Below are positions 24,521 to 58,005 of a stretch of 64,000 bases of DNA, piece after piece. The stretch covers positions 43,807-107,806 of the forward strand of contig BTQY01000001.1 of the NCBI GenBank assembly GCA_036986115.1, given 5' to 3'. Made by a program: the position numbers and the translations under genes. Each line of letters begins with the position of its first letter. Within the stretch, counting starts at the first letter, position 1. Source of the DNA: Gammaproteobacteria bacterium. GTDB taxonomy: Bacteria; Pseudomonadota; Gammaproteobacteria; BTQY01. Under the pieces are notes generated by a model. That model saw only the letters and a program-made list of their open reading frames with translations. It was not told the origin of the DNA and made no database searches.

Positions 24521-24564
24521 AGCTTGCAGCCATTCAATATCGTCAATTTCTGGATATTCAAATC

Positions 24565-25713: not shown

Positions 25714-25731
25714 CACTAAGGAATATGAATC

Positions 25732-38146: not shown

Positions 38147-38287
38147 TCACGCCATAAGGAGGAGCATCAGGACGCTATGTCTGATGGGTTATTGACCTGT
38201 ATGTTACACATAGGTGCTATATATAAGATATGTTCTAGAGAGCTACCCATCGTGGATAGCTCTGTGGAGGAACAAAGGAGGTGTGTG

Positions 38288-38647: not shown

Positions 38648-38861
38648 CGGCTTTTTGCTGACTGACAGGAGGCAGTGAACGTCCCGGATCCGAAAGGTGC
38701 GAGCGGGCAGAGGGTCTGGTAACAGATCCGTGTCCGCGCTGTCACCGGGCAGGGTCCGGGCCGCTTTTGTGTGCACGTAAAAGGACCGGCACCGCCGTGG
38801 ATTGACGGACCCTGGTCCTGGTGATGGTCATCAGGGTAACGACTATGAGTAGGGAGAAATC

Positions 38862-39659: not shown

Positions 39660-39681
39660 TGCTTTAGCTATAATCCCGCTT

Positions 39682-41628: not shown

Positions 41629-41659
41629 TGCTGACTATGTTTTATCCTGCTTTCAGCGT

Positions 41660-42775
41660 TTACTCAAACTCCATCGACTGAAAGACCTGTCCGGCATTCC
41701 GCTTGGCCAGAAATTCGGCTGTTGGTAAATTTATATAGGCAGACTGATCGATATTGTAGGCATCCTGAAGTGTCCCGCCATTTTCGATCAACTCGGCTAC
41801 CTTCGTGCGTAAATAAACCAGGTAGTCTCTTGTATAACGTGTGACCTTGGCCATATTGGTCGCCTCACCGTGCCCCGGAATGACGTATTCCGCCCCCAGT
41901 GCTGCAAACTTGTCCCAGGTTTTTATCCAGGCGGCGGTATCTGTATATTCGAAAAGGGGCAACATGCGCTGATGAAATGCCATGTCACCTGAGACCACCA
42001 GGCGTTTTTGTGGCAGCCAGACAACAATATCTCCAGGGCTGTGTGTCGGTCCCAGGTGAATCAATTCAAAGCGTACGCCGCCCATTTCGATAACTTTGTT
42101 GTGTTTAAAGCTCTCATCAGGCAGGGTCACCTTTGTCCCCTCCGCCTTTTCCTTCATCACCCGTTTCATTTCCTCAAAAACCGCAAATGAAGTATCTTTA
42201 ATCTCTTGCACTGCGTCTTCATGTGCAATCACGGTAGCGCCCTGTTCCTGCCAGTAGTTTGAACCCAGCATGGCATGGCCCTGCGCATTTTCCAGCACCA
42301 CAAACTTAACCGGCTGATCGGTGATCTTTTTGATCTCTGTGTGTAAGGCCTTCGCCAGCAAATAGTTGGCACCGGCGTTGACAACCAGAACACCATCAGA
42401 GGTCACAATGAAAGACAGGTTATTGTTATGTCCAGAGTTCTCATAGCGGGCCGGCGCAAACGAACCGATCGCTGACCAGACCCCGTCAATCACCTGTTTG
42501 GGTTTATCGTAAAGCATCGAATCCGGCGCCTTGTCACTGGTGTACAGGGCTTCACCGGTCAGTGGCGGTGCTGTATCCTGAGAGGCTGACGGCGCCAACA
42601 CTTGCTCCTGCTCCTGCATCGGCGCTGGCGGCTGCACCGTGGCCTGTGCCGGTTTATTCTGCGGCATGTTCGTTTCTGACAGATCACCTGAATCACAGGC
42701 CGATAACATTGTTACCGCCAGTAAAATTGGCAGGCTCGTTAATTTTCTTTTCATAGTTACAATATCCTGGTGCAT
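41660..42775 (-). CDS. MBL-fold (metallo-beta-lactamase-like) lipoprotein
   Basis: Lipobox LAVTMLSAC. C-terminal MBL-like HxxxD/GD motifs (HSPGDIVV...SGDMAF). The canonical HxHxDH motif is not obvious. Confidence 0.6.
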   Translation of the reverse strand: MHQDIVTMKRKLTSLPILLAVTMLSACDSGDLSETNMPQNKPAQATVQPPAPMQEQEQVLAPSASQDTAPPLTGEALYTSDKAPDSMLYDKPKQVIDGVWSAIGSFAPARYENSGHNNNLSFIVTSDGVLVVNAGANYLLAKALHTEIKKITDQPVKFVVLENAQGHAMLGSNYWQEQGATVIAHEDAVQEIKDTSFAVFEEMKRVMKEKAEGTKVTLPDESFKHNKVIEMGGVRFELIHLGPTHSPGDIVVWLPQKRLVVSGDMAFHQRMLPLFEYTDTAAWIKTWDKFAALGAEYVIPGHGEATNMAKVTRYTRDYLVYLRTKVAELIENGGTLQDAYNIDQSAYINLPTAEFLAKRNAGQVFQSMEFE

Positions 42776-43090: not shown

Positions 43091-46000
43091 TTGAGCGAAG
43101 TGATGCAGAGAAAAAAACTTGGTATATCAGGATTTACTTATAAAGATCTGTTTACGCAAGATGGTTTACAAAAACTCGATAATGAGTTTGTTCTCTATCT
43201 GAAACAATCAGATGAGGTCCTTTACTCACAATTACTGGACTATCGTTCTAAAGCTGATCCCATAGCGGGGGGATCCTTGTCCACCAGTCTGCTGGTTCTT
43301 TCCTGTGCACCAATACTTGAAGCATTTGTCGCTGAACTATTTGAAATTAAAGAAGAAACCAGGCAGGCAAGAGAAAGCACTCTTTCCCACGATGTCATTA
43401 TCTCATTCAAAAAGACCTTTGTGCTGCGGCGCGCACGACGACGCCTGTTAAAAAAAGAAGCGATTGAAACCTTTGATGAGCTTGACCGCTGGCTGGATCA
43501 GGCGCTCGCAGAACACACAATAGATGACCCGGATCAGGAACGGGCCGTGTCGTTGCTTGGTGAGCTTTTGCTATCTGACCAGGATAACAATAAAGACCAG
43601 ATTGAATTGTTAACACGCTGGTGCATTCGTGCCATGACCACCCCTGAGGGACAAACCAGGGTCAGCGACTGGGTCTGCTTTCAACTGCCGCAAGGTCTGG
43701 ATTACGCATCGTTAGTACCTGTGCAGGAACTTGCAGGAGACAAATTCAATCGCTTACAAGCGCAACCCGATAATTATAGATTACGTGATGGCTTCAAACT
43801 CACCGACACACGAATGAATGCCCGCCAGATACAGAATGAAGTCAATTACTGCGTTTACTGTCACAAGAATGAAGGTGATTACTGTTCGAAAGGCTTTCAC
43901 GAAAAAAAAGGTGAGCCGGAAAAAGGATTCAAAAAAAATCCACTTGATGTAACACTCACTGGCTGCCCACTAGGTGAAAAGATATCTGAAATGCAGGCGC
44001 TTAAGCGAGACGGCCATGCAATCGCGGCCCTTGCAACGATCATGATTGACAATCCTATGTGTCCTTCAACGGGGCACCGGATTTGTAACGATTGCATGAA
44101 GGGGTGTATTTATCAAAAGCAGGAACCGGTTAACATCCCCGAAATTGAAACACGCTGTCTCACCGACGTGTTGTCACTGCCCTGGGGTGTGGAAATATAT
44201 GACCTGTTGACCCGTTGGAATCCGTTAAGACAGAAACAATGGTTGCCTAAGCCTTACAATGGCTTAAACGTGCTTATTACAGGTATGGGCCCCTCCGGAT
44301 TTACGCTGGCACACCATCTTTTGATGGAAGGGTTCGCAGTGGTCGGCACGGATGGTCTGAAAATCGAACCACTTCCGCGGACACTCATCGACAACCCTGT
44401 TGAACATTACAGTGACATAGAAGATCAGTTAGACGAACGAATCATGACCGGTTTTGGCGGTGTCACAGAATATGGCATTACCGTACGTTGGGACAAGAAT
44501 TTTCTAAAATTAATCTATCTCACACTGATGCGCCGGCCTTATTTCCAGGTATTTGGTGCTGTACGTTTCGGTGGAACCATTAGAGTGGAAGATGCCTGGG
44601 AACTGGGTTTTGACCATGTCGCTATTGCAGTCGGTGCTGGTCTGCCGCAGGCCTTACCCGTGCCCGGGAGTTTGGCGCCCGGAATGCGACAGGCAAATGA
44701 TTTTCTTATGGCCTTGCAGCTTAGCGGTGCGGCCAAGGCCTCCAGCCTGGCTAATTTACAAATCAGGTTACCCGCAGTTGTCATCGGTGGCGGTCTGACT
44801 GGCATCGACACGGCAACGGAAGTCCAGGCCTATTACATTCAGCAAGTAGAAAAGTTGCTCTACCGATTTGAAAAACTGGTAGAGACCATTGGAAAGGACG
44901 CAATCTACCAGCAGTTAGATGAAGTGTCGCGATTGATTCTGGAAGAACAACTTGCCCATGGGAACCTGGTAAAAGAAGAACGTCAGCGGGCATCGAGCAA
45001 AAAAGAAGAACCGGATTTTATTTCTTTGATCCGAAGCTGGGGTGGTGTCACTGTTGCCTACAGACGAAATATGAATGAATCACCCGCGTACCGGAGTAAC
45101 CATGAAGAAGTCAGGAAGGCGCTGGAAGAAGGTATTTATTATGCGGCCGGCATCGAACCTCTCGAAGTCAAAGTCGATCAGTTCGGTCATTGCGAATCGT
45201 TGCTATGTGTAGTGCGCGAAAAAGATAAAGATGGGAATTGGTACAATACAGATAAAAAGTTCGATTTGCCTGCTCGCGGTATCTTTGCCGCTACAGGGGC
45301 ACGACCTAATGTGGCCTATTCATTCGAACATCCAAAAAGGTTTTTAAAGGAAAACGGCCATTATCAAACGTTTAATCTGGAAAACAATAAACTGATATCA
45401 ACACCGACCGCAGAACATATCAAGAAAGACAATTTTGGTGCATTTACCTCCTATGAGGATCAGGACAGCAAGCTAAATCACCGCGTCACATTTATCGGAG
45501 ACACTCACCCGGTGTTTAATGGCAATGTCGTAAAAGCGGTTGCATCCGGCATGCGGGTGTATCCTGAAATAGTGGCATCTTTTGGTCAACTTGCATCGCA
45601 ACAAGGTAATGAGGAGACATACCAGGCATTCAGTAAAAAGATCGCGTGGCTTTTTACTGCCACTATCGACGATGTTATCCGACATAATCCAACAACGCTT
45701 GAATTGAGAATCCAGGCGCCGATGGCGGCAAGGCGTTTCAAACCCGGACAATTTTTTCGTCTACAGAACTATGAAAGTTCAGCGCCCGTTATTGGTGATA
45801 CCACATTACAAACGGAAACTATGGCGCTAACAGGCGCTCTGGTCGATAAGGAAAAAGGCCTGGTTTCTCTCATGATAATGGAAAAGGGCACGAGCTCAAG
45901 AATCTGCGCCACCTTGAAAAAAGGCGATCCTGTTTCCCTGATGGGCCCAAGTGGGGTACGTATGAGAATTCCGGATAACAGGGAAAATATCCTGATAGTC

Positions 46001-46645
46001 GGCGATACACTTTGCATCCCGCATATTCTGGGTGTTGGGCCAGCCATGCTCGAAGCAGCTAATAAAGTGTGCTTTATCCTGCATCTTGATTCTGCCGATG
46101 AGTTGTTTTGCCAGCAACAACTGGAGCAATCAGCAACAAATATAGTGTGGAATGTCAAAAAAGGTGAATTGATAAAATCCAGTCGTCCCCATGATATCTC
46201 CACATGCGGTGACTTACTGGATGTTGTTAATCAGTTTTCAGATGGCTCACTTCCTGGTGATATTAATAATACGTTTGCGGCTAAAGACATTGATAGAATT
46301 ATCATCGTCGGTAATCAGGAACTGGTACGCAGTCTGCGCGATATATACGAAAGTAAATTAATGAACACCATGCCCAAGGTCGGCCTGAACGTCACCGCAT
46401 CCATCAGTACACCAATGCAATGCATGCTAAAAGGGGTTTGCTCGCAATGTTTACAATGGCAAATAGACCCACAAACCGGCAAACGCACCAAAGCCGTCTT
46501 TAGTTGCTCATGGCAAGATCAGCCCCTGCATATGGTTGATCTGGATAACTGGAAAGACAGACTCGGACAAAACCGGTTACAGGAGGGGATATCTAATCTT
46601 TGGTTAGACCACCTGTTTAAACTGCAGGAGATAGAAAAAATATAG
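43091..46645 (+). CDS. Large multidomain Fe-S flavoprotein: unknown N-terminal domain + GltD/NfnB-like module + PyrK/FNR-like module with a C-terminal [2Fe-2S] motif
   Basis: Cys clusters (CVYCHKNEGDYC; NPMCPSTGHRICNDCMKGC). Two Rossmann GxGxxG motifs (ITGMGPSGF; VIGGGLTGID). C-terminal FNR-like domain and CMLKGVCSQC...C. 1184 aa. Confidence 0.75.
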   Translation: MSEVMQRKKLGISGFTYKDLFTQDGLQKLDNEFVLYLKQSDEVLYSQLLDYRSKADPIAGGSLSTSLLVLSCAPILEAFVAELFEIKEETRQARESTLSHDVIISFKKTFVLRRARRRLLKKEAIETFDELDRWLDQALAEHTIDDPDQERAVSLLGELLLSDQDNNKDQIELLTRWCIRAMTTPEGQTRVSDWVCFQLPQGLDYASLVPVQELAGDKFNRLQAQPDNYRLRDGFKLTDTRMNARQIQNEVNYCVYCHKNEGDYCSKGFHEKKGEPEKGFKKNPLDVTLTGCPLGEKISEMQALKRDGHAIAALATIMIDNPMCPSTGHRICNDCMKGCIYQKQEPVNIPEIETRCLTDVLSLPWGVEIYDLLTRWNPLRQKQWLPKPYNGLNVLITGMGPSGFTLAHHLLMEGFAVVGTDGLKIEPLPRTLIDNPVEHYSDIEDQLDERIMTGFGGVTEYGITVRWDKNFLKLIYLTLMRRPYFQVFGAVRFGGTIRVEDAWELGFDHVAIAVGAGLPQALPVPGSLAPGMRQANDFLMALQLSGAAKASSLANLQIRLPAVVIGGGLTGIDTATEVQAYYIQQVEKLLYRFEKLVETIGKDAIYQQLDEVSRLILEEQLAHGNLVKEERQRASSKKEEPDFISLIRSWGGVTVAYRRNMNESPAYRSNHEEVRKALEEGIYYAAGIEPLEVKVDQFGHCESLLCVVREKDKDGNWYNTDKKFDLPARGIFAATGARPNVAYSFEHPKRFLKENGHYQTFNLENNKLISTPTAEHIKKDNFGAFTSYEDQDSKLNHRVTFIGDTHPVFNGNVVKAVASGMRVYPEIVASFGQLASQQGNEETYQAFSKKIAWLFTATIDDVIRHNPTTLELRIQAPMAARRFKPGQFFRLQNYESSAPVIGDTTLQTETMALTGALVDKEKGLVSLMIMEKGTSSRICATLKKGDPVSLMGPSGVRMRIPDNRENILIVGDTLCIPHILGVGPAMLEAANKVCFILHLDSADELFCQQQLEQSATNIVWNVKKGELIKSSRPHDISTCGDLLDVVNQFSDGSLPGDINNTFAAKDIDRIIIVGNQELVRSLRDIYESKLMNTMPKVGLNVTASISTPMQCMLKGVCSQCLQWQIDPQTGKRTKAVFSCSWQDQPLHMVDLDNWKDRLGQNRLQEGISNLWLDHLFKLQEIEKI

Positions 46646-46782: not shown

Positions 46783-48099
46783 TCAGTTGACGACGACCAT
46801 CTGGTGGCCCTCGCCACGCACCGTAATCTTACCGATCACCTTGAGTTGTTTCGCGTCAACGACCCAGACGAAGGGTTTTTTCCTGCTGGATACGTAGATC
46901 TTGCCGGTGTTACCGATCACCTTGACATGATAGGGCGCCGGATCGAGCTTCAGGGTACGCACCTTGCCGGTTTTGACATCGAGAGCGACCAGCTTGTTGT
47001 CCTTCTTGGCGCTGGCAAACAAGGTCTTGCCATCCGCCGAGATATCAATGCCATGGGGTTTATTGCCAATGGTAAATGTTTTTACCACTTTGAGTTTTTC
47101 CAGCGAAACCTTGGATATCGTTCCACCGCGGCCATTATTGGTATAGACGAATTTTTCGTCCGGAGACATCAGGATGTGTTCCGGGCCTTTGCCAACCAGT
47201 ATGTTCCTGCTGACGATCCAGTTTTTGGTATCGATGACGCTGAGTGTGTTATTACCCGCATTACTCACGTACATCTGCGCACCGCCATCGGCAAACACGA
47301 CATAGTTCGGTTGTGGCCCGGTGTAGATGTTGCGAAATATCTTCTTGGTTGCCAGATCAATCAGACTAATCGTCCCGGCAGTCGTGTGAGCAGATACGGC
47401 ATACTTCCCATCTGGTGTAACAAAGGTGTGATGCGCCATCCCCCTGACCTTGATGGTGGTTTCCAGTTTGTTATCCGCCACCCGGATCAGTGAGACAGTG
47501 CTGATACCCACTGCGGGGAGCAAACCACCTTTCTGTGCTGCATGGTGCTTTTTATGATCAGCATCTGACATGCCTTTGGGTTTTTTCATCTTGGACTGGC
47601 CGGATTTGCTCATGTTGGCATGGTCCTTCTTCACCGGAGGCTCGGTTGTTGCCTTCGGCTTGCCGCCCATCGCCGAATGATCCTGTGTCTTTTTATCAGC
47701 ACCCGGTTGGGGATGATGTTTCTTATGATCCGCCTCGGATACTCCGGCAGGCTTCGCCATCGTTGATGCAGCAGATTTTGGCTTACCAGTCTTGGATGAC
47801 ATCATTGCATGTCCTGCCGTTTTCCCGGATGACATCATTCCATGTCCCCCCATTTTCGGTCGACCCGCTACCACCTCATCGTTGGAGCCCGCAACCAGGT
47901 ATTCGCCATTGGGGGTCAATGACAGGCCGTGAATATTTTTGAAACCACTGATCTTGCCGATTGTCTTGTCCGTCGCCGCATCCACGATCAGTATTTCATT
48001 CGCAGAGCCCAGCGGTATGTATACGGTCGGACTTGCCAGTGATGTCAGCGGGGCCAACATGGCGGCCCCACCGAGTAGTACGAATTTGAATGTATTCAT
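46783..48099 (-). CDS. YVTN-family beta-propeller protein with a His/Met-rich low-complexity insertion (putative periplasmic metal binding)
   Basis: Signal peptide. YVTN repeats at both ends. Insertion of about 110 aa (HGMMSSGKTAGHAMMSSKTGKPK...ADHKKHH...ADHKKHH) encoded by imperfect tandem DNA repeats. Confidence 0.75.
   Translation of the reverse strand: MNTFKFVLLGGAAMLAPLTSLASPTVYIPLGSANEILIVDAATDKTIGKISGFKNIHGLSLTPNGEYLVAGSNDEVVAGRPKMGGHGMMSSGKTAGHAMMSSKTGKPKSAASTMAKPAGVSEADHKKHHPQPGADKKTQDHSAMGGKPKATTEPPVKKDHANMSKSGQSKMKKPKGMSDADHKKHHAAQKGGLLPAVGISTVSLIRVADNKLETTIKVRGMAHHTFVTPDGKYAVSAHTTAGTISLIDLATKKIFRNIYTGPQPNYVVFADGGAQMYVSNAGNNTLSVIDTKNWIVSRNILVGKGPEHILMSPDEKFVYTNNGRGGTISKVSLEKLKVVKTFTIGNKPHGIDISADGKTLFASAKKDNKLVALDVKTGKVRTLKLDPAPYHVKVIGNTGKIYVSSRKKPFVWVVDAKQLKVIGKITVRGEGHQMVVVN
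47794..47847 (-). repeat. 33-bp imperfect tandem repeat (2 copies) inside the propeller gene, encoding MMSS(G/K)-type His/Met motifs
   Basis: GGATGACATCATTGCATGTCC at 47794 and GGATGACATCATTCCATGTCC at 47827. Confidence 0.6.
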
Positions 48100-48196: not shown

Positions 48197-48228
48197 AGTG
48201 TAGAACCTAAGTGTTACTTACAGGTCAA
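48197..48228 (-). promoter_or_regulatory. MerR-family-type promoter (element B): TTGACC-N20-TACACT with dyad ACCTGTAAGTAACACTTAGGT
   Basis: On the minus strand, -35 is at 48223-48228 and -10 at 48197-48202. About 90 nt upstream of the propeller-2 start. Confidence 0.55.
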
Positions 48229-48508
48229 GTGTTTTACCAAATTGTAATGATAAAGGCCAGCGGTATCGGATAAAAGGCGGTCACTGGCCGCCACTGGCAA
48301 GGGTCGCGATGACGCGAAGGAATTCACTCGTGTCGTGGGTGCGTGGATGTACCCCAGGGGCATGATGTACAGGAAGTACAAATGTCGCGGGCGCATGAAC
48401 GCACCCCAAGGGCACTTCTGCACTTTGTTCGGGCGCTCCGTAGCGACCGAGCTGCAGACCCCCTGTCGCGCTGGCACTACCCAGGTGATATTCAAACTCT
48501 TGCACCAG

Positions 48509-48540
48509 AGTGTAGAACCTATGTGTTACTCACAGGTCAA
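48509..48540 (-). promoter_or_regulatory. MerR-family-type promoter (element C, tandem copy): TTGACC-N20-TACACT with dyad ACCTGTGAGTAACACATAGGT
   Basis: Same orientation as element B, about 310 bp further upstream. The core matches B at 31 of 34 positions. Confidence 0.5.
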
Positions 48541-48683
48541 GACAATATGTCCTTGCCGGGGCTGGCTCCAGGTCCAGGGTAAATCAGTACATTTTTTCGT
48601 TGTTCCTGAAATTATTTGCAAGCCAGGTGATTTCTATCCAGAATAAGACTCAATCCAGATATATGCAAGGCAAGGGCCCCGAC

Positions 48684-49244
48684 ATGAAAATAAAATTACT
48701 TGTAATACTTCTGCTTGCTATGGCCAGCACACCCAGTTTTGCCAAAGAATTTATTTACCAGGGCAAGGTGAAAGGTATGGTCTGTGCATTTTGTGTTTAT
48801 GGTGTGAGTAAAAGTATTGCAAAGATCCCGGGCGTTAATGCCGAAACGGTTAATGTTGACCTGAAATCGGGTCAAGTGAATTTTCACAGTTCTTCAGAAT
48901 TGAGTTTCAAAAAAGTATCAAGTGTCTTTAAGGGCTCAGGGTTCAAGCTGGTTTCGCTTGAAAAATCCAGTGAGGCGACACACAAAATGGCAAGCTACGA
49001 AAGCAAACCCACATTGGTTTTTAAACTCGCTAACACAGGTATCGATAAATATAGCAGCATCATCGAGTCTATCGGTAACATTGCTGCTGCTGATGCATCC
49101 AAGATAGTCATTACCGCGCCTGAATCAATTGAAATAAAGATATTAAAGCCCATGATTGGCGGCAAACAACAATCCATCCGGGTTCAATATATATTGAAGA
49201 ATGATGACGGAATGAAAATAGAATTATTCCAAAAATCAAATTAA
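48684..49244 (+). CDS. Periplasmic heavy-metal-associated (HMA) domain protein
   Basis: ATG at 48684 (MKIKLLVILLLAMASTPSFA signal peptide). HMA-like GMVCAFC metal-binding motif. Confidence 0.55.
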   Translation: MKIKLLVILLLAMASTPSFAKEFIYQGKVKGMVCAFCVYGVSKSIAKIPGVNAETVNVDLKSGQVNFHSSSELSFKKVSSVFKGSGFKLVSLEKSSEATHKMASYESKPTLVFKLANTGIDKYSSIIESIGNIAAADASKIVITAPESIEIKILKPMIGGKQQSIRVQYILKNDDGMKIELFQKSN

Positions 49245-49543
49245 TGAGTCAGGTCTGTCTGACAATATAACCATACAAAAACAGTCATAATCCGGGAATC
49301 GGGTGAGTAAAGCTTAAAAGGATCTGCCATGCAGTTATGGGGTGTGCATTAGTATCCCGAAAAGTGTTGTTCTTTATCAATATTATTTAATTATTCGAAT
49401 GAATATAATTTATACGTGAAATTATAACAGGGTTATAACTGCGATATTATTACATATTTTTTCTTTTTACTGGCACTGGAACTCCATAGAAGCTGTTGTT
49501 GTCTATACTTACATATTAAAGATTAAGTTAATGGGAAAGATAT

Positions 49544-50020
49544 ATGTCTAAATACAATCGTTTCCGTCGAGCATTCCTGCAGGCCGCCGGGCTTTTCGGT
49601 GCCGGCATGGTCACGACTAAAGTTCAGGCACATCATACTGATTCTCATTTTAACGATTCCTCTGCGCATAAAGTAGTCTTCCAATGCAATAAAGTTGAAC
49701 CAGAGTATCTGGGTCATATTTTGTTTTCAGCGGGAGTGATGCTGAGAAAATATGGTGATGATGTTGAAATAGTTATCACAACATTCGGCCGTGGCGTGAA
49801 CCTGTTGGGAAAGAACCCGATCAGACCTATTTCCAAAGAGCATCAGGAAAGAGCAGGCTCACTGGCTGCTTACGGAGTGGCCTTTCACATCTGTCATAGC
49901 ACCATGAAGTCACTTAACTGGGGCAAAGAAGATATTGTCGCTTATGCCAAGGTCGTACCGGCTGGTGCGATAGACCTGATGGAATTACAGGAAAAGGGAT
50001 TCAGCTACATTAGTGAATAA
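49544..50020 (+). CDS. Tat-exported DsrE/DsrF-like (YchN-fold) protein
   Basis: Twin-arginine motif NRFRRAFLQAAGLFGAG. DsrE-like core (KVVFQCN...AFHICHSTM) with a conserved Cys. Confidence 0.55.
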   Translation: MSKYNRFRRAFLQAAGLFGAGMVTTKVQAHHTDSHFNDSSAHKVVFQCNKVEPEYLGHILFSAGVMLRKYGDDVEIVITTFGRGVNLLGKNPIRPISKEHQERAGSLAAYGVAFHICHSTMKSLNWGKEDIVAYAKVVPAGAIDLMELQEKGFSYISE

Positions 50021-50074
50021 TTTCTGGCCTGGGCTTATACGCACAGAGTAAACATGAACGCGCCAGATTGCTGC

Positions 50075-51202
50075 TCATTCGAAATCTTCCATCTCCAGTT
50101 CACGGTAGACAAAATTAGCATTGGCGCGTTGGTTAAGTTTATACAGGCGTGTACTGCGCCAGTCTTTGAAATCTGTCTGGTCTACCGCGTTTAATAAATC
50201 GACATCATTGGCAATTGCCTTACGCATGGCTGCGCGTAATCTTTTAATATAAGATTGTGTTCGCTTGACCATAGGGAATGGCGATGTTTGCGCACTGCCA
50301 TGACCGGGGATCATTAATTTAACCTTGGCAAATTTCTTCAGTAACCAGTCCTGGGCCTCAATGGCACGCAAAGAATTACCATCACCCATATACGTGGTGC
50401 GCTGATTAAAAGCCAAATCCGAGATCCACACAACTTGTTGCCCTGGTTGGTATACCACCAAATCACCATACGAATGATGTTTGCCAACATTGTAAATTTC
50501 AAATGTTCTGCCGCCAGTCTTTAGCGTATAACTGGAAAACAGTTTGCCGCTAATGGGAATATCAGGACCAACTCCGGCAAATCCAGCCATGTCCGGTTTG
50601 ATAAAGGTACGACGAAAAGCAGCTGAACTATCGATTTTTTCCGAACGAATATAATCCAGTGTCCCGATGTGGGCGATTACCTTAACGCCACCTAGCTGGC
50701 GAAAAGCATTGGCACCGTAGGAATGATCCGGGTGGTTGTGGGTAACAATGAGATATTTGACTGGTTTATTGGTGACCGAACGAATGGTGGCGATCATACG
50801 CTTGCCGAGTTTAGGGGTACCCAGCGAATCGATCACAACCACCCCATCGTTCGTCACTACAAAACCAGCATTGCCATTCCAGCCACGATTGTACTGATCC
50901 ACTTCCGCGATGTTACCAAAGAAAAAATAGGTATCGTTTGCCACCTTAAAATAAGGCAGCGGGGCATCGGCCTTGTCCGTTTCCTTAAGCACGATATTAG
51001 GTATCTCAGTGGTATCGATGGCTTTTTTCGGCACATAATATCGTGATGGATCAGTACCGAAACCATGCGCCACGGGGACAGCCTGTTTATCTGACTGTTT
51101 GTCTGACGCAGCAAATGCGGCACTGAAAAACATCATACACACTGCCGTGAAGAAAAGTGTCTGTCTTTTACTCATCCTGGCATCTGGATTAACCGTTCTC
51201 AT
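50075..51202 (-). CDS. Periplasmic MBL-fold metallo-hydrolase
   Basis: Signal peptide. HxHxDH motif (THNHPDHSYG). Starts 1 bp downstream of the yeeE-like gene, so an operon is likely. Confidence 0.7.
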   Translation of the reverse strand: MRTVNPDARMSKRQTLFFTAVCMMFFSAAFAASDKQSDKQAVPVAHGFGTDPSRYYVPKKAIDTTEIPNIVLKETDKADAPLPYFKVANDTYFFFGNIAEVDQYNRGWNGNAGFVVTNDGVVVIDSLGTPKLGKRMIATIRSVTNKPVKYLIVTHNHPDHSYGANAFRQLGGVKVIAHIGTLDYIRSEKIDSSAAFRRTFIKPDMAGFAGVGPDIPISGKLFSSYTLKTGGRTFEIYNVGKHHSYGDLVVYQPGQQVVWISDLAFNQRTTYMGDGNSLRAIEAQDWLLKKFAKVKLMIPGHGSAQTSPFPMVKRTQSYIKRLRAAMRKAIANDVDLLNAVDQTDFKDWRSTRLYKLNQRANANFVYRELEMEDFE

Positions 51203-51203
51203 A

Positions 51204-52409
51204 TTAACTTACCTGTTTCAGTTTTCCTATACGCGGTATCAAACGAACATCGGCCAGTGCTGCCAGTAATGCATCCATCACACTGGCGTCCTCATAGACC
51301 ATACGATAGTATTCAAACTTCATCGTTATCGCACAGCCAAGAATAAATGATGCAAAGGCAACCAGCGAACCCAATGCAAGGGTAGAGAAACCTGTAATTC
51401 CCTGTCCAAAGGTACAACCCATTGCCAGCACACCACCGATACCCATTAATATGCCACCAAAAAGATAACGTACGAGATCCTTCATCGAACTAAACCATTC
51501 AAATCGCAGGTTGCCGGTAAATAAAGCATAGATAAAGGAACCCACAATCACACCAACAAGAATAGCAACACCGAAAGTAATCAGTGATATTTCCAGAGGA
51601 TTAGCAAGATAATAGAGCGTTTCACCCATTGGATTAACAAAAGTGAATGACATGGCGCCGACACCCGGTGGTGGTGAGTCCATAAAACTGGCGGCCTCAA
51701 CCGCCTCCTGACCTAATGGTCCAGCTGTAACGTACCAGCCGGCCACAACTATCAGGCCAACGACTGTCCCACCTAATATATTATCGAAGCGACTGAGGAA
51801 ATCACGCGAACGAAAAATAAAGTACAGGAACGTCAGTATAATTAATGCGGCTGCCAATGGGTGAAACCAGTTACTGTCTGCGACACCGAACAGACTGCCC
51901 ACCATTGTGGTGATCTGTTGACTATTCATGCCATAATTTTGCAAATCAATCGTCAATGGTGACATCCAGATATGAAAACCGTAATGATAGAAATCCGTCT
52001 TGGTCATCAGGAAGGCAAAAATCCCACCGATAAACAACACAAACAACGACTTCATATTACCGCCACCGATACGAATCAGCGTCTTGTTGACGCAACCACC
52101 TGCCAGCGTCATGCCAACACCAAAAATAAGGCCACCCAGCAAATAACGGATCCAGGCAAAATTGGCGGTGCGATACGGTGGCATGGTCATATCAAGATTG
52201 ATGATGCCGAGTTGTTCAAGCAACAGGACCCCAGACATGGCAACAGCAATAGCTAATAGCCATGCATACATTCGCCCCTTATCGCCCATATTGACCCAGT
52301 CTGAAATCGCCCCCATGGTGCAGAAATTGGTTTTGTGAACCACGATACCCAGAACTACTGCCAGGCTAAAACCTGACAAAATGACATACCATATTGATGC
52401 GCCTTCCAT
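51204..52409 (-). CDS. YeeE/YedE-family inner-membrane transporter (thiosulfate/sulfur-compound TsuA-like), two-repeat form
   Basis: Two conserved Cys-loop motifs (NFCTMGAIS and AMGCTFGQG). About 10 transmembrane segments. Confidence 0.8.
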   Translation of the reverse strand: MEGASIWYVILSGFSLAVVLGIVVHKTNFCTMGAISDWVNMGDKGRMYAWLLAIAVAMSGVLLLEQLGIINLDMTMPPYRTANFAWIRYLLGGLIFGVGMTLAGGCVNKTLIRIGGGNMKSLFVLFIGGIFAFLMTKTDFYHYGFHIWMSPLTIDLQNYGMNSQQITTMVGSLFGVADSNWFHPLAAALIILTFLYFIFRSRDFLSRFDNILGGTVVGLIVVAGWYVTAGPLGQEAVEAASFMDSPPPGVGAMSFTFVNPMGETLYYLANPLEISLITFGVAILVGVIVGSFIYALFTGNLRFEWFSSMKDLVRYLFGGILMGIGGVLAMGCTFGQGITGFSTLALGSLVAFASFILGCAITMKFEYYRMVYEDASVMDALLAALADVRLIPRIGKLKQVS

Positions 52410-52715
52410 TAAGTTCTCCTGTTACATGTTAGCTGTACTATTCTGATTGCAGCGTTTAAGTTTATGCCTGACCTGTTGCCCTGTTAGCTGATGGCCAATG
52501 CGTACGAGCCGCAGGTTTTAGCCTCATTTCATTATATTAATCGTTTTAATTTTAATTCACTACAACCACTATATGGCTTTCACCTTGAATATTATGGGGA
52601 TTTTGCCAATAACCAGCTAATTGCCTGGTATCAACTGCCCAGATGACAGCCATATTGCAACAGGATGCAAATAATTTCCTGTTTTAACATCGAGTTACGC
52701 ACTCATTAAATCATA

Positions 52716-52747
52716 AGGGTAGAACCTATGTGCAGCTCACAGGTCAA
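52716..52747 (-). promoter_or_regulatory. MerR-family-type promoter (element D): TTGACC-N20-TACCCT with dyad ACCTGTGAGCTGCACATAGGT
   Basis: On the minus strand, -35 is at 52742-52747 and -10 at 52716-52721. 8 of 10 dyad pairs are complementary. About 300-nt leader to the yeeE start. Confidence 0.55.
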
Positions 52748-52890
52748 GGATTTCCTGATCCTGGCTAATCAGTATTCCTGAAAAATATTAGTACAAGTCA
52801 GCAGTAGTGAGTATAAAATCAGCCTGATGGTCTTAACGGCAGTGTATAAATCAATCTGAATACCATCCCATCATGCAGAATCCCATGTCA

Positions 52891-53802
52891 TCATTTCTCA
52901 CTGGACTTGCCAAGATTCGTGTTTTCCAACGGGAGCAGCCTTACGTTCCAACGCCTTAACGCGGCATCATCCACTCGCAGGTTGCGGTAACCTGCTGCAT
53001 AGAACATGGCATAATTAAATGCTGAGCCAGTGCCACCCAGACAGGTCAGCAGCATCGGCCTGTCGGGATTGATTTTCATGCGTGCGAGCAGCCCTGGTAT
53101 TTTCGGTGCCTTGGCATACAACCGTCCATTGTCGGCCTTGCGCATGTAATCCTCCCATGGCTGATTGACGCTACCCGGGATGCGCCCGTAACGCGGATTG
53201 GCCTGAAACTTGCTTAATCCTTCAAAGTGGGTTGCTGGCCGGCCATCCACCAGTAAATAATGTTCGCGTATTTTGGCTAGTTCATCTGTTGTAATTTCCA
53301 GCGCAAGTATTGGTCGTGCGACGAAGTTGCCCGCCTGAACAGCATCGCTGTCATCTTCTATCGGACCATCAGCGGCTAACCAGCCATGCCATCCTTCATC
53401 GAGCACGCCGACGTTGGTATATCCCAACAAGTGAAACAGCCAGTACAGATAGAATGCGCCCAATATTTCATCTGTGTTGTTACCTTTGTAGTAAATCACC
53501 ACACCATCGTTATCGTTAATACCCAGTTTACGGATTTTATCTGCCAGCTTGTCAACCGATAAGCGCACCAGCGCCCCATCGCTGTCGACATAACGCCATG
53601 CGCTTTTGTTGGTAACCACACTACCCGGTATATGCCCATTAAAAGTAAAGTCCACCTCATCAGATACTTCAATAATTGCCAGGTCAGTCTGATTTATATT
53701 GTTAATCAGCCATTGCGGACTAACGCTTGCTGGCACTGATACCGCAAAGCTCTGGCCGGAGATGAGCAAACACGCAGTTACTATCATGAACCGATATTTC
53801 AT
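52891..53802 (-). CDS. Periplasmic tandem-rhodanese sulfurtransferase
   Basis: Signal peptide. Two rhodanese domains (GHIPGSV...; active-site loop LTCLGGTGSA). Confidence 0.75.
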   Translation of the reverse strand: MKYRFMIVTACLLISGQSFAVSVPASVSPQWLINNINQTDLAIIEVSDEVDFTFNGHIPGSVVTNKSAWRYVDSDGALVRLSVDKLADKIRKLGINDNDGVVIYYKGNNTDEILGAFYLYWLFHLLGYTNVGVLDEGWHGWLAADGPIEDDSDAVQAGNFVARPILALEITTDELAKIREHYLLVDGRPATHFEGLSKFQANPRYGRIPGSVNQPWEDYMRKADNGRLYAKAPKIPGLLARMKINPDRPMLLTCLGGTGSAFNYAMFYAAGYRNLRVDDAALRRWNVRLLPLENTNLGKSSEK

Positions 53803-54291
53803 ATGGCTTCCTAATGGTGCGGTGAAGAGTAACTACAACTATAAACTTACCAATACGGTAATTTCAACTTCCCTCACTTCGTGCAGCAAAAACGTTTTAT
53901 AGCGGTGCCCAAATCAAGGCAGAAAACCAGCCATAGCAAGCAACATCCTGAATCAGGTTAGTTGGCTGAGGCCCGTTCAGAGCAGTTTCCCTCGGGCATG
54001 AAATCCGCCTGCTCTTTCTGCCTTTTTCATCATAGATAAATACTTCAATCTCGTGAACGGTGCCCGGGTTTTTGGTTTCATAGCGGCCAATATCCGGGAC
54101 AGCCAGCCGTCGCCAGTGCCAGGGTCGCGAAGTTGGCACAGTTTTTTAAGGCCTTGCCCGGCATTCTCGGTAGTTCTTTGAATTGTTTGTAAATATTGGA
54201 TATATTTACTGTGGTTTTTCGTCAGTACGCATATTCTGTCAGACGTCCGTGACAGGGATTTATTTCATCTCAAACGGTAAAGGTAGAAAAG

Positions 54292-54323
54292 CTTGACCTA
54301 TGCCTAACGTACAGGTTATAGAC
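54292..54323 (+). promoter_or_regulatory. MerR-family-type promoter (element E): TTGACC-N20-TAGACT with dyad ACCTATGCCTAACGTACAGGT
   Basis: -35 at 54292-54297. -10 at 54318-54323. About 60 nt upstream of the cfa AAGGAGG/ATG. Confidence 0.5.
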
Positions 54324-54387: not shown

Positions 54388-55734
54388 ATGGAATCCACAG
54401 AAAAAAAATTCAATGCGCTCCAGACCACTGCGCTCACCGGTGTTTCAGCCACTTCAACAAGTGACAGTCTCTCGAAAATTGGCGCTGAGATTGTTTCAAC
54501 GCTTCTCGCGGATTACCGTGGCGATATCGCCATTCGACTCTGGGACGGCACGCTTGCACACGGTACATTTGATGCGCCCTGTACCGTTGTTTTCAAAAAA
54601 CCTGGTGCATTGCGCGAACTGATCCTGCACCGAAGTTTGCTGCGGCTCGCAGACAGCTATCTTAGCGGTGACATTGACGTGGAAGGCGATCTGGAGACCC
54701 TGTTTGAGCTCCAGACGACCCTGGCCAACCTGCATCTGTCCCTGGGTACCCGGCTGCACCTGTTGTATCAGGCCCTGCGGCTGCCGAGGCGGGCCCGCAA
54801 CGGCGCTACGCGCAGTTGGCGTGCAAAAAGGTCCGAGCATCAGAATTCCCAGGCCAGCATCGCGCACCATTACGATGTGAGCAACAATTTCTACCAGCTC
54901 TGGCTGGACCCGGAAATGGTGTACTCCTGTGCCTATTTCAGTTCCACCGATCAATCCCTGGCCGGGGCACAGCAGGATAAACTGGATTACTTGTGTCGCA
55001 AGTTGCGGCTGGAGCCGGGACAGACACTGCTGGATGTCGGCTGTGGCTGGGGTGCGCTGGCCTTGTGGGCTGCGCGCCATTACGGGGTGCAGGTACACGG
55101 CATCACGCTCAGTCAGGAGCAGCAACGATTTGCACAGGAGCGGGTGCGTGCCACCGGCCTGGAACAGCAGGTCCGTATCGAATTGCTGGATTATCGTGAT
55201 CTGCCGGAGGATGCACAATATGACCGCGTGGTCAGTGTCGGCATGTTTGAGCATGTTGGCGTCAAGAACTTCCCGACCTATTTCGGCACCGTCCGACGGG
55301 TACTCAAGCCCAATGGCCTGTTTCTGAATCACGGTATTACCAGTGAGACGGGCTGGGAACGCTCGACACTGACCCGCTTCATGAACCGCTATATCTTTCC
55401 AGATGGTGAACTGGCGCGTATCAGTGACGTGACCGCCGCGATGGAACTCGCCGGTTTCGAAACCCTGGATGTCGAAGGCCTGCGCCTGCATTATGCACTG
55501 ACCCTGCGCCACTGGGTGCGTGTACTGGAGGCAAAACGTGACCAGGCAATACGCTATTCGAGTGAAGTGACATACCGGTTATGGCGGTTATATATGGCTG
55601 GCTGTGCCTTTTATTTCGATGAGGGCAGCACCGGCCTGTACCAGGTCCTGGCGGGTCACCAGCACCACTTGCAACCCGTACCGCTGCGGCGTGATGATCT
55701 TTACAGGCACCGTAGTGTTGATCGGGATAGGTAG
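54388..55734 (+). CDS. cfa: Cyclopropane-fatty-acyl-phospholipid synthase family methyltransferase
   Basis: SAM-binding motif LLDVGCGWGALALWAA. 448 aa. Strong ribosome-binding site. Confidence 0.85.
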   Translation: MESTEKKFNALQTTALTGVSATSTSDSLSKIGAEIVSTLLADYRGDIAIRLWDGTLAHGTFDAPCTVVFKKPGALRELILHRSLLRLADSYLSGDIDVEGDLETLFELQTTLANLHLSLGTRLHLLYQALRLPRRARNGATRSWRAKRSEHQNSQASIAHHYDVSNNFYQLWLDPEMVYSCAYFSSTDQSLAGAQQDKLDYLCRKLRLEPGQTLLDVGCGWGALALWAARHYGVQVHGITLSQEQQRFAQERVRATGLEQQVRIELLDYRDLPEDAQYDRVVSVGMFEHVGVKNFPTYFGTVRRVLKPNGLFLNHGITSETGWERSTLTRFMNRYIFPDGELARISDVTAAMELAGFETLDVEGLRLHYALTLRHWVRVLEAKRDQAIRYSSEVTYRLWRLYMAGCAFYFDEGSTGLYQVLAGHQHHLQPVPLRRDDLYRHRSVDRDR

Positions 55735-55736
55735 TC

Positions 55737-56423
55737 ATGGGACAGGAATATGCCTACGGCATGTGGGTGATCGCGGTATTTAATGTCGGCCTGTTCCTGT
55801 TTTTCTTTTTAGGTTTTCTGCCGCCGAAGGGATTCGCGGAATGGCGCAACCTGGGTGTGGTTACTGCATTTCTGCTGGCACTGTTCAGCGAAATGTACGG
55901 CTTTCCGCTGACCATCTATCTGCTCACCGGTTGGCTGGGTGATGCCTATCCTGTTCTGCAACCATTCAACCATAAATTCGGCCATCTGTGGGTGGTGGCT
56001 TTTGGTGGTTCTACGCTGGCCTGGGCACTGGTAATGGGTACCAGTCTGGTGTTGATGGTGGCTGGCTATCTGCTGCTTTCCAGGGGCTGGCAGCAAGTGC
56101 ATAGTGCACGCGGACGCATGCTCACAGAAGGCCACTATGCCTACATGCGGCATCCACAGTACACCGGTCTGTTTCTGGTCATTAGCGGTTTCCTGGTGCA
56201 ATGGCCGACACTGCTGACAATATTGATGGCGCCAATACTGCTATATGCCTATGTGCGTCTGGCGTATTCTGAGGAACGTCACATGTTGAAGCAATTTGGC
56301 GAACAGTATGCAGACTATATGCACCGGGTGCCGGGATTCTTTCCGCCCTGGTATCAATGGAAAGCGCTCTTTACGACACCGGTGCCGCCGGCGCTGAAGG
56401 TGTCGGGGAAATGGGGAGCATGA
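55737..56423 (+). CDS. Membrane methyltransferase of the PEMT/ICMT family (phospholipid or isoprenylcysteine methyltransferase-like)
   Basis: Polytopic. C-terminal motif RHPQYTG...EE is typical of the ICMT/PEMT family. Starts 2 bp after the cfa stop. Confidence 0.65.
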   Translation: MGQEYAYGMWVIAVFNVGLFLFFFLGFLPPKGFAEWRNLGVVTAFLLALFSEMYGFPLTIYLLTGWLGDAYPVLQPFNHKFGHLWVVAFGGSTLAWALVMGTSLVLMVAGYLLLSRGWQQVHSARGRMLTEGHYAYMRHPQYTGLFLVISGFLVQWPTLLTILMAPILLYAYVRLAYSEERHMLKQFGEQYADYMHRVPGFFPPWYQWKALFTTPVPPALKVSGKWGA

Positions 56424-56457
56424 CTAAATATGCCGGCGGCATGCCGGTCAGGAGGTA

Positions 56458-56757
56458 ATGATGGAAGGTTTACTCTCATTTCTTGTCATCGGTGGTCTGT
56501 TCTTTCTCATGATGCGCCACGGTTGCGGTGCGCACATGGGCCGCGGGGGTCATGGTGGCCATAGCCATGGAGCAGACAGCGAAGTAAAAGCAACTGATCC
56601 GGTGTGCGGCATGGAAGTTGATGTGAACCAGGGCTATGGGAAGATGCACGATGGTCAGCTATACCGGTTCTGTTCCCGTAATTGTCTCGACCAGTTTGAG
56701 GCTGAGCCTGAAAAATATCTGCATCAAGTGGTTGAAAGTACTGGAGGTGAGCAATGA
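56458..56757 (+). CDS. YHS-domain metal-binding protein with a His-rich N-terminal segment
   Basis: Transmembrane helix. HMGRGGHGGHSHG. YHS/TRASH motif DPVCGMEVD...RFCSRNC. Confidence 0.6.
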   Translation: MMEGLLSFLVIGGLFFLMMRHGCGAHMGRGGHGGHSHGADSEVKATDPVCGMEVDVNQGYGKMHDGQLYRFCSRNCLDQFEAEPEKYLHQVVESTGGEQ

Positions 56758-57023
56758 AAACTGGAATTTCACTGCTGGCGGTCGGCCATGCCAGCAGTCT
56801 GCTACTGGCCATAACATTCACACTTTGTGTATTGTGGGATCTGCTGTTGCCGGAGTATGCGATGTATACCGCCTGGCGTACTCTGCTGCCCGGCTTTGAA
56901 TGGTTGAGCTTGCAGAGTTTCATCCTGGGGTTCGTTGAAACCTGGGCCTACGGCTGGTTGTTCGCGCTGATCTGGGTACCGATCTATAATTTCTTTGCGG
57001 CGCGCGAAAAGATCGCCAGCTAA
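56754..57023 (+). CDS. Small hydrophobic membrane protein (function unknown)
   Basis: The start codon overlaps the YHS gene stop (ATGA). Two or three predicted transmembrane segments. Confidence 0.4.
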   Translation: MKTGISLLAVGHASSLLLAITFTLCVLWDLLLPEYAMYTAWRTLLPGFEWLSLQSFILGFVETWAYGWLFALIWVPIYNFFAAREKIAS

Positions 57024-57030
57024 ATGCGGC

Positions 57031-58005
57031 ATGCAAGGGCAGGAATCTAACGATCCCGCGACACCTCGCATCGGCGTTGTGCTGAGTTCCGGCGGTGTGC
57101 GTGGCGTGTTTGCACACACCGGGTTTATGCAGGCAATACAGGGCATGGGGATCCCGGTGTCCGCCAGTGCCGGTTGCAGTGCCGGTGCCCTGGTCAGTGG
57201 TGTTCTCGCCAGCGGTACTTTACTGGAGCACTGGCTCGAGACCATGGCCAGAATTACCAGCCGCTCCTTCTGGACACCGGACTCACTGCCTCGTTTTCTC
57301 TGGGAAATGACCGCACACAGGGGACGCGGCTATACCGGCCTGTCGCGCACAAATGCTGCCCTGCAATTTACCCGCGACAACCTTTCCGTGAATACCTTTG
57401 AGGAATGCCTGTACCCGTTTCATGTCCTGGCCATTAATCTGGGCACCGGCAAGAAGGTGGTGTTCTCCGAAGGTGAACTTGCCCCGCGCATAACGGCCAG
57501 CGCCGCCATGCCAATCTTTTATGACCCCGTCAGGATCGATGGCGAATACTATTGTGATGGCGCCTTGATTGATTTTGCACCGACCGATTCCATTTGCTGC
57601 CGTCATCAACTTGATGTGGTTATTGTCCATGATGTGTCCCAGCATTTCGGCCTCCACCGTGATCTGGATATGGCCCTGCAGGACAACTGGGCGATGCTGG
57701 AGATCGTCAATCGCCTGGTGTATCGGGAAAAGCCCTGGTATTTGTCCGGTGAACCGCTGTCTTTGCACCACTGTCCCTGCGGTTGTGGGGCGATCGTGAT
57801 TGCGATCGAGCCCGAACTCCTGCCGATGCGCTGGCCAGTGACCAAAGGCGGTGATAAGGCCCAATGTCTTGTCAGGGAGCAGGTCGAGGCACTGTTGCAG
57901 CCTTATTTACAGGCAATATTGACCGATCCACGCAAACAGTTGCCGTTGTCCGGAAATACCGTGACTAAGCCGGCTGGCGAGTGCGGAAAGTGTGATAGCC
58001 ACTAA
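57031..58005 (+). CDS. Patatin-like phospholipase
   Basis: GxGxxG (SSGGVRGV), GxSxG nucleophile elbow (AGCSAG) and DGA catalytic Asp (YCDGALIDF). An alternative start lies at 56995. Confidence 0.8.
   Translation: MQGQESNDPATPRIGVVLSSGGVRGVFAHTGFMQAIQGMGIPVSASAGCSAGALVSGVLASGTLLEHWLETMARITSRSFWTPDSLPRFLWEMTAHRGRGYTGLSRTNAALQFTRDNLSVNTFEECLYPFHVLAINLGTGKKVVFSEGELAPRITASAAMPIFYDPVRIDGEYYCDGALIDFAPTDSICCRHQLDVVIVHDVSQHFGLHRDLDMALQDNWAMLEIVNRLVYREKPWYLSGEPLSLHHCPCGCGAIVIAIEPELLPMRWPVTKGGDKAQCLVREQVEALLQPYLQAILTDPRKQLPLSGNTVTKPAGECGKCDSH

Follow-up and report, generated by a model that had tools for sequence, protein, structure and literature searches.

Proteins of the YeeE family reside in the inner membrane, and thiosulfate uptake (PMC11073785) as well as sulfur import for oxidation (PMC11582611) have been described as their roles. 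YeeE (TsuA) of Escherichia coli and Spirochaeta thermophila is paired with the TusA-like YeeD (TsuB) under sulfur-starvation control (PDB 6LEO, 8J4C; PMC11073785), while SoxT1A and SoxT1B are YeeE-family proteins of sulfur oxidizers that are believed to carry sulfur from the periplasm to the cytoplasm (PMC11582611). In the BigR/Pmp-type yeeE-yedE-pdo operons for sulfide detoxification, a YeeE-family protein, an enzyme of the metallo-β-lactamase (MBL) fold and rhodanese activity come together under an ArsR-family persulfide sensor (PMC7315123, PMC5823870). Here we describe a yeeE gene that shares a MerR-type promoter with a gene for an exported MBL-fold hydrolase (mbl), encoded on a 64,000-nucleotide (nt) stretch of contig BTQY01000001.1 from a gammaproteobacterium whose closest genome match is an uncultured Thioalkalispiraceae bacterium. 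This whole stretch is called the window in the following, and all coordinates are given in its numbering.

The original prediction for this DNA had combined five neighboring genes, encoding an HMA-domain protein, a DsrE-like protein, the MBL hydrolase, YeeE and a tandem rhodanese, into one periplasmic sulfur-processing module. All five open reading frames (ORFs) are in place with the motifs ascribed to them, and their family assignments stand in Pfam searches. Export signals were judged from N-terminal positive charge and a hydrophobic core (computed hydropathy), and these N-termini together with the Pfam matches agree with the claim that the products are exported or membrane proteins from sulfur-transfer and metal-binding families. 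As a single unit, the five genes did not hold up: they are a composite locus and not a five-gene machine, and the pair that recurs elsewhere is rhodanese-YeeE. We favor, at about even chances, a recruitment in which a stress regulon of the copper/silver type has taken up a rhodanese-YeeE cassette for sulfur import, which would tie sulfur uptake to copper stress.

Every component comes from a known superfamily, and sets of yeeE, MBL and rhodanese genes are known under ArsR-type persulfide sensors. The yeeE-mbl pairing as such is therefore of an already known kind, since the BigR/Pmp-type operons hold such pairs. What appears to set the locus apart are the exported partners, a different type of MBL, the lack of a YeeD/TusA partner and a metal-type MerR promoter embedded in a large regulon. 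The MBL-fold enzyme of the BigR/Pmp operons is a cytoplasmic persulfide dioxygenase of the ETHE1 type, whereas the one encoded here is exported and SoxH/B1-like; the rhodanese is periplasmic, and a MerR-type promoter takes the place of the ArsR-family control. No gene for an ArsR-family persulfide-sensing repressor flanks yeeE-mbl. In contrast to SoxT1A and SoxT1B, the yeeE gene of the window stands outside a sox/shdr cluster, has no link to an ArsR-type SoxR/sHdrR repressor and encodes a longer protein.

The transporter itself (51204–52409, minus strand; 401 amino acids (aa)) matches Pfam Sulf_transp (PF04143, 7.4e-61) from residue 26 to 361 and thereby covers profile positions 1–310 of 310, and it matches the StYeeE structures 6LEO and 8J4C. 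It had been announced as a two-cysteine protein, but three cysteines (C30, C106 and C332) are invariant in 21 orthologues, and they align with the conserved cysteines C22, C91 and C293 of Spirochaeta thermophila StYeeE (numbering of PMC11582611). It thus shares the full-length fold, the three equivalent cysteines and the membership in an inner-membrane family for sulfur-compound transport with TsuA, differing in its length (401 aa versus 330–350 aa), in its score against the TsuA model (105 versus 400) and in its surroundings. The YeeE-YeeD system has a TusA-like partner, while no such YeeD partner is encoded in the window, where the constant companion is the periplasmic tandem rhodanese; the promoter is of the MerR type here, as opposed to sulfur-starvation control there.

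The rhodanese gene (52891–53802, minus strand) encodes 303 aa with two PF00581 stretches, as had been predicted, and the catalytic loop C254-LGGTGS, in which C254 of the second domain aligns with the catalytic cysteine of SseA. Both the loop CLGGTG(S/A) and the signal peptide are conserved in eight orthologues. The protein scores below the SseA equivalog cutoff (75 versus 250 bits) and is exported, while SseA is not. A sigma-70-like promoter, TTGAAA-18-TATAGT, may precede the gene at 53838–53867 on the minus strand, judged from a consensus match only (10 of 12 positions).

A rhodanese gene lies directly upstream of yeeE in seven fetched loci (L090, L092, L094, L098, L099, L117 and L121), and among the metagenome loci this is the case wherever YeeE is at least about 59 % identical (L098, L099, L117, L121). 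When only the informative YeeE loci of the close clade are counted, the rhodanese accompanies YeeE in 8 of 8, the MBL in 3 of 8 (the window, L009 and L092). The periplasmic tandem rhodanese followed by a three-cysteine YeeE is the conserved core. An orthologous YeeE from Thiohalobacter (57 % identical) is encoded beside dsrEFH and tusA, a context that fits sulfur import into a cytoplasmic relay and agrees with the published roles of the family (PMC11073785, PMC11582611).

The stop codon of yeeE and the ATG of mbl are 1 nt apart, so the call of a yeeE-mbl co-operon is sound. The MerR-type promoter proposed for it is genuine as well: on the minus strand at 52716–52748, CTTGACC is followed by a 20-nt spacer with the dyad ACCTGTGAGCTGCACATAGGT and then by TACCCT, with the operator match at 52723–52748. 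It does not serve the other three genes of the supposed module. Searching with the pattern CTTGACCT-N13-AGGTT and up to two mismatches yielded seven matches in the window, where chance alone would give 1.2, and none of 100 shuffles reached seven. Six of them share the −35 element TTGACC, the 20-nt spacer, a dyad ACCTGTG..CACAtAGGT (of the ACCTGTG...CACAGGT type) and a −10 element TAnnCT, while the seventh, at 27878 on the minus strand, comes without such a dyad.

Besides the yeeE-mbl operator, these sites are found before a β-propeller gene (48204–48229, minus strand; gene at 46783–48099), as a second, tandem copy with no credible ORF behind it (48516–48541, minus strand), before an array of lipid-related and metal-related genes (54292–54317, plus strand), 71 nt upstream of a gene for an SPW-repeat membrane protein (38191–38216, plus strand, two mismatches) and, in a weaker form with two mismatches, upstream of a second β-propeller gene (33848–33873, plus strand). 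The array spans 54388–58005 on the plus strand and encodes a CFA-synthase-like and an ICMT/PEMT-like methyltransferase, a YHS protein, a DUF5676 protein and a patatin-like phospholipase. All six MerR-type promoters are clustered in a 20-kb part of the window and, as judged from their sequences, would define a multi-operon regulon of two exported β-propellers, the SPW protein, yeeE-mbl and the cfa/icmt/yhs/duf5676/patatin array.

The E. coli promoter PcopA of the CueR-CopA system is built of TTGACC, a 19-nt dyad spacer and TAACCT. Common to CueR-CopA regulons and the one described here are the −35 element TTGACC, the over-long spacer with an ACCT...AGGT dyad, and the association with a P1B-1 ATPase and periplasmic metal-binding proteins. 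The dyad sequence differs, as do the regulators of the relatives, which remain below the CueR cutoff and carry a cysteine at the Ser77/Cys79 position, and the regulon is much larger, including a sulfur transporter, an MBL and lipid-modifying enzymes.

The operator is not peculiar to the window. It stands directly before yeeE in L009, L090/L091 and L094 too, with a perfect dyad ACCTGTG-N7-CACAGGT in L090/L091, so that a MerR-type promoter is kept before yeeE in four genomes, the window included. In L090 and L094 no MBL gene lies beside yeeE, and none of the queried metal-regulon genes was found in the fetched flanks. As the operator precedes yeeE even where neither MBL nor metal genes are near, YeeE itself seems to be a selected target of the regulator and no passive passenger of an MBL operon.

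The link to copper comes from the relatives. Orthologues of at least about 62 % identity are encoded beside genes for MerR, a heavy-metal ATPase, YHS, DUF5676, ICMT-like, patatin and β-propeller proteins (L088, L089, L010, L013, L092), and orthologues of the partner array flank the MBL gene in L010, L012/L088, L014, L089 and L092. The ATPases of these relatives exceed the copper-type cutoff (TIGR01511, 608 versus 397 bits) and carry the motifs CPC, YNx4P and MxxSS, which we take to be the signature of P1B-1 Cu(I)/Ag(I) ATPases. In L013 the order is β-propeller, merR, operator, Met-rich periplasmic protein, copA and mbl, with no gap between copA and mbl, and in L089 and L010 the operator precedes merR-copA with one mismatch. 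The full set appears in L092, where a colinear array reads copA...icmt-duf5676-flavoprotein-rhd-yeeE-mbl-patatin...HMA(98 aa)...dsbD-merR. The MBL seems to be one of the core enzymes of this regulon.

Several observations weigh against a copper-linked sulfur-import function of the cassette. The MBL and YeeE are encoded separately more often than together: of 80 genome loci that hold MBL orthologues, one has YeeE (L009) and one a rhodanese (L008) as the neighbor, and in none of 80 metagenome loci with YeeE relatives is an orthologous MBL adjacent, which makes a joint function no more than a possibility. The metal link is moreover limited to MBL orthologues of at least about 62 % identity, those of 49–62 % being found in unrelated contexts. 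YeeE scores far below the cutoffs of the TsuA equivalogs (105 versus 400 bits for NF052577 and 76 versus 645 bits for NF041049). The rhodanese gene is located upstream of the yeeE operator, and the genes for the HMA and DsrE-like proteins are on the opposite strand with no operator of their own, which leaves a co-regulation of these two with yeeE-mbl unsupported. A merR gene is absent from the 64 kb of the window according to both a regular-expression search and tblastn with the MerR proteins of the relatives; the former would not catch the RHY/RYY variants of the relatives, which the latter covers. The regulator and its metal are therefore deduced from the relatives, whose MerR proteins reach none of the cutoffs set for the ZntR, MerR, CueR and CadR models and show an unusual cysteine pattern, with a cysteine at the equivalent of position 79 and a single loop cysteine. 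As they fit no metal-specific equivalog, the metal is read from the neighboring genes.

These regulators would also be compatible with a MerR-family sensor in the manner of SoxR and NmlR, one that responds to reactive sulfur, an oxidant or an electrophile and commands a sulfur or redox stress regulon that includes a copper pump. Apart from the missing equivalog match and the atypical cysteines, such a sensor would be in keeping with the many regulon members that are not metal proteins, among them the CFA synthase, patatin, the SPW protein and YeeE. In the relatives, however, the regulator gene is the neighbor of genes for a P1B-1 ATPase, which contains the metal-binding domains YHS and HMBD, and for a Met-rich periplasmic protein, the operator stands before these genes, and YHS, HMA and Met/His-rich proteins pervade the regulon, which is why we regard a non-metal sensor as distinctly improbable.

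The rearrangement history of the locus raises a different question, namely whether there is a functional unit at all. A 3'-end relic of a DUF5676 gene is found at 53897–53935 on the minus strand, recognized by blastn, which aligned it with the end of the L089 gene for DUF5676; the ORF 53897–54139 (minus strand) ends in ...CYGWFSALIWAPL, compared with AYGWLFALIWVP in the intact DUF5676 copy at 56754–57023. Lying upstream of the rhodanese gene, the relic points to an earlier array, probably ordered YHS-DUF5676-(rhd-yeeE)-mbl like those of L089 and L092, that was later broken by inversion or rearrangement. In a near relative (L003), a fragment of 109 aa is what is left of the decayed yeeE between the rhd and mbl genes. 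It is conceivable, yet in our view unlikely, that the MBL serves envelope or lipid remodeling with patatin, the CFA-synthase-like and ICMT/PEMT-like enzymes and a geranylgeranyl-reductase-like flavoprotein, that rhodanese-yeeE was inserted alongside, and that the HMA and DsrE-like genes are unrelated neighbors. The relic attests to such past rearrangement, the MBL persists in L003 while yeeE decays, and most MBL orthologues of the close clade have no YeeE and stand beside patatin, the flavoprotein, ICMT and DUF5676; structurally related MBL-fold enzymes furthermore include alkylsulfatases and other non-sulfur hydrolases. Mere insertion is at odds with the operator directly before yeeE in four genomes, some of them lacking MBL or other metal genes nearby, and with two gene orders in other genomes: L092, a distant relative, has rhd-yeeE-mbl in colinear arrangement, and L009 has yeeE-FAD-mbl (FAD denoting a flavin adenine dinucleotide protein).

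This FAD protein of 386 aa is weakly geranylgeranyl-reductase-like and recurs beside MBL or YeeE in L009, L010, L013, L089, L092 and L099, in the arrangements yeeE-FAD-mbl, mbl-FAD-patatin and rhd-yeeE-FAD; a homologue is missing from the window. Matches to SQR were only weak for the flavoprotein encoded ahead of rhd in L092 and L099.

Returning to the recruitment of a rhodanese-YeeE cassette into a copper/silver-type regulon, the following mechanism can be envisaged. Rising metal would act through a MerR activator of the Cu(I)/Ag(I) type, its gene lying outside the window, which would turn on yeeE-mbl and the rest of the regulon. The periplasmic rhodanese, and possibly also the exported DsrE-like protein, would deliver sulfur to YeeE, which would carry thiosulfate or sulfane sulfur across the inner membrane via its cysteine pathway. 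The cell might benefit from sulfur for thiols and for the repair of copper-damaged Fe-S clusters, or from draining copper-reactive sulfur out of the periplasm. The MBL could hydrolyze a sulfur adduct attached to the cysteine of a carrier protein, an activity that has been proposed for SoxH-like proteins, or alternatively act on the envelope with the neighboring lipid-modifying enzymes. A crosstalk of sulfide and copper has been reported in Acinetobacter baumannii (PMC7315123). Our literature search retrieved no paper tying YeeE to copper or CueR and nothing pertinent on SoxH or on the structure 8D2Z discussed below.

In its most far-reaching form, the proposal would be that a MerR regulon of the Cu(I)/Ag(I) type, in a clade of sulfur-oxidizing Gammaproteobacteria, recruited both a dedicated sulfur route from periplasm to cytoplasm, made of the exported rhodanese, YeeE and perhaps the Tat-exported DsrE-fold protein with its His-rich metal site, and a new periplasmic family of binuclear MBL enzymes, so that copper stress is met by moving or cleaving reactive sulfur. 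We consider it unlikely that all of this holds. If it did, copper-sulfur species would be formed or dissolved, or thiol and Fe-S repair would be fed, and the MBL would be the first known periplasmic hydrolase for (poly)sulfide adducts bound to proteins or metals. Sulfur oxidizers store thiosulfate, polysulfide and elemental sulfur in large amounts in the periplasm, the compartment that copper reaches first, and how they reconcile the two is essentially unstudied. The metal-type MerR promoter before YeeE in four genomes connects copper homeostasis with sulfur trafficking in a concrete way that can be put to the test, and the locus gives a large uncharacterized family of exported MBL proteins the context of a copper-ATPase operon. 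Should the copper-sulfur link fail, an ordinary mosaic of known families would be left.

The MBL (50075–51202, minus strand; 375 aa; Pfam Lactamase_B PF00753, 4.6e-21) is best described as a putative periplasmic SoxH-like MBL-fold metallohydrolase. The HxHxDH motif and periplasmic location that had been predicted are borne out: H155, H157, D159, H160, H243, D262 and H301, which include the THNHPDH motif and make up a complete ligand set for a binuclear metal site, are invariant in 26 orthologues, every one of which has a hydrophobic N-terminal signal. With SoxH and the "quinoprotein relay system zinc metallohydrolases" (TIGR04558/TIGR04559) it has in common the exported MBL fold, the HxHxDH motif and the contexts of sulfur oxidation or periplasmic oxidation, and a TIGR03866-related β-propeller is also encoded nearby in the window. 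These SoxH-related models are the best curated matches, but the protein reaches only about half of their cutoffs, with 162 versus 280 bits for TIGR04559 and 134 versus 300 bits for TIGR04558. To our knowledge, SoxH itself has no established function. Sox genes and genes for a pyrroloquinoline quinone (PQQ) dehydrogenase or a SoxYZ-like carrier were found neither among the scanned ORFs of the window (all but four ORFs at 16.4–22.2 kb) nor in the loci of the relatives.

The AlphaFold model of the MBL (pLDDT 87) has its closest PDB match in 8D2Z, an uncharacterized Burkholderia protein, with chlorothalonil dehalogenase, the catalytic domain of alkylsulfatase (16–17 % identity) and B1/B2 lactamases as further structural neighbors. 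Membership in a characterized unrelated family such as the alkylsulfatases had been named as an outcome that would speak against a sulfur function; the MBL falls in none, and from its sequence and fold we place it outside every characterized family. An identity as alkylsulfatase was rejected on the grounds that the likeness is confined to the catalytic fold at 16–17 % identity and the extra domains are absent. Persulfide dioxygenase was rejected likewise, as no protein of that name and no ETHE1 or CstB is among the 39 PDB sequence matches and a signal peptide is present. The family counts 1014 proteins at E≤1e-10 and is abundant in sulfur-oxidizing Gammaproteobacteria and in some Betaproteobacteria. 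A search of plasmids with the MBL returned only distant quinoprotein-relay hydrolases (≤33 %) and no orthologous context. An envelope-remodeling role of the MBL is conceivable, lipid-modifying enzymes being its most frequent neighbors.

The DsrE-like gene (49544–50020, plus strand) encodes a protein of 158 aa with DsrE/MTH1491 fold (Pfam DsrE PF02635, 3.1e-09, 37.4 bits versus a cutoff of 22.7) that is predicted to be exported by twin-arginine translocation (Tat). The twin-arginine signal claimed for it is present as RFRRAFL, in which the RR pair is invariant in 23 homologues, and H42, H115, C117 and the mature N-terminus AHHT(D/E)xHF are invariant in the family as well. Its AlphaFold model superimposes on MTH1491 (PDB 1L1S) with a TM-score of 0.93, Foldseek also retrieving 2PD2, 3MC3 and 2HY5. 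The invariant C117 follows the central strand, aligns with a cysteine of MTH1491 and is a candidate counterpart of the active-site Cys78 of DsrE. While the protein shares the DsrE fold with DsrEFH, TusBCD and MTH1491, it differs from DsrEFH and TusBCD in being a single gene product with no DsrF/H (TusB/C) partners, in its Tat export and in its His-rich mature N-terminus. The invariant His-rich N-terminus together with H42 and H115 suggests a periplasmic metal site beginning at the N-terminal histidine. This remains a lead only, since the model is of low confidence in the His-rich N-terminal segment. The gene is convergent with and adjacent to yeeE in L094/L095, where both flanks differ from those of the window, and it is found away from yeeE in Thiolapillus and another genome. 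A link between the MBL and the 158-aa protein that had seemed to emerge from a Solemya symbiont locus (L006) was rejected, the 158-aa protein of that locus being an unrelated membrane protein.

The HMA-domain protein (48684–49244, plus strand; 186 aa; Pfam HMA PF00403, 7.7e-08) has a predicted Sec-type signal with the N-terminus MKIKLLVILLLAMASTPSFA|K and contains the GMVCAFC site that had been reported for it. It ends in a conserved C-terminal domain of about 100 aa, and the full-length architecture occurs in roughly 45 clusters at 50 % identity; the exact sequence with the given start is not in the protein collection. In no fetched locus does the 186-aa HMA gene adjoin YeeE, MBL or DsrE-like genes, and the protein is most simply seen as a periplasmic metal chaperone that happens to adjoin the module. 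The Tat-exported DsrE-like protein and the HMA protein with its C-terminal domain would represent two uncharacterized exported families.

With these two proteins in view, the original model can be weighed as a whole, according to which all five genes form one periplasmic pathway for the import and processing of thiosulfate or persulfide, serving sulfur oxidation or assimilation with metal being incidental. Every product is indeed exported or located in the membrane, rhodanese, DsrE-fold and YeeE proteins are established parts of sulfur relays (PMC11582611), and the DsrE-like gene adjoins yeeE-rhd also in L094/L095 despite the differing flanks there. Neither TusA/YeeD nor DsrEFH genes are present in the window, however, as checked for TusA/YeeD by tblastn and a CPxP-motif scan. 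Since the HMA gene is never linked elsewhere, the MBL accompanies YeeE in only 3 of 8 informative loci and the promoter is part of a regulon that includes a copper ATPase in the relatives, we judge a five-gene pathway to be quite improbable.

The leader between the promoter and yeeE (52410–52715, minus strand) is long, with 313 nt from operator to start codon, and contains no ORF. Neither at gathering nor at permissive thresholds did Rfam report a riboswitch or small RNA family in this leader or between the tandem promoters upstream of the β-propeller gene. In L094 the yeeE leader (9695–10008) is of similar length, about 315 nt, but of unrelated sequence and with a long inverted repeat, whereas it measures merely about 80–125 nt in L090 and L009. 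The long leaders of the window and L094 look like independent insertions into the same leader.

The tandem promoter copies (48197–48541, minus strand) form a direct repeat of 33 nt that is 94 % identical, with an offset of 312 nt. Behind the upstream copy come about 225 nt of GC-rich sequence with no credible ORF and a terminator-like hairpin at 48292–48276. The stretch behind the operator at 48516 could be a relic or encode a small RNA induced by metal; the folding of the 239 nt between the promoters is not distinctive (z = −0.96), and the stretch is conserved in no fetched locus.

The downstream β-propeller gene (46783–48099, minus strand) encodes a predicted exported YVTN protein and regulon member, whose orthologues are found beside merR in L088 and L013. 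It contains a Met/His/Lys-rich insert of about 130 aa with the repeats GH(G/A)MMSS and S(E/D)ADHKKHH and a tandem DNA repeat at 47794–47857, and the composition of this insert is typical of periplasmic copper-binding segments. Around the SPW gene and its operator (35906–40917, plus strand) an MMPL/RND-like transporter, a LolA-like protein and a 411-aa protein without a family match are encoded; with the CFA-synthase-like and ICMT-like enzymes and the patatin they lend the regulon a flavor of membrane-lipid remodeling.

A second SoxH-like MBL is encoded at 41008–42775 (minus strand), a lipoprotein with an LSAC lipobox (TIGR04559, 144 bits) that is 26–31 % identical to orthologues of the yeeE-linked enzyme and is followed by a membrane-anchored TlpA/AhpC-like protein of thioredoxin fold. 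Between this second MBL and the β-propeller lies the gene for a flavoprotein fusion of 1184 aa (43091–46645, plus strand), which resembles the PRK06567-type "glutamate synthase beta / 2-polyprenylphenol hydroxylase" with 637 bits, below the cutoff. A further metal-related element of the neighborhood is encoded upstream, at 23228–28824 on the plus strand: a CusCBA/CzcCBA-like tripartite RND efflux system, comprising an OEP, a CusB-type HlyD_D23 protein and an AcrB-family transporter.

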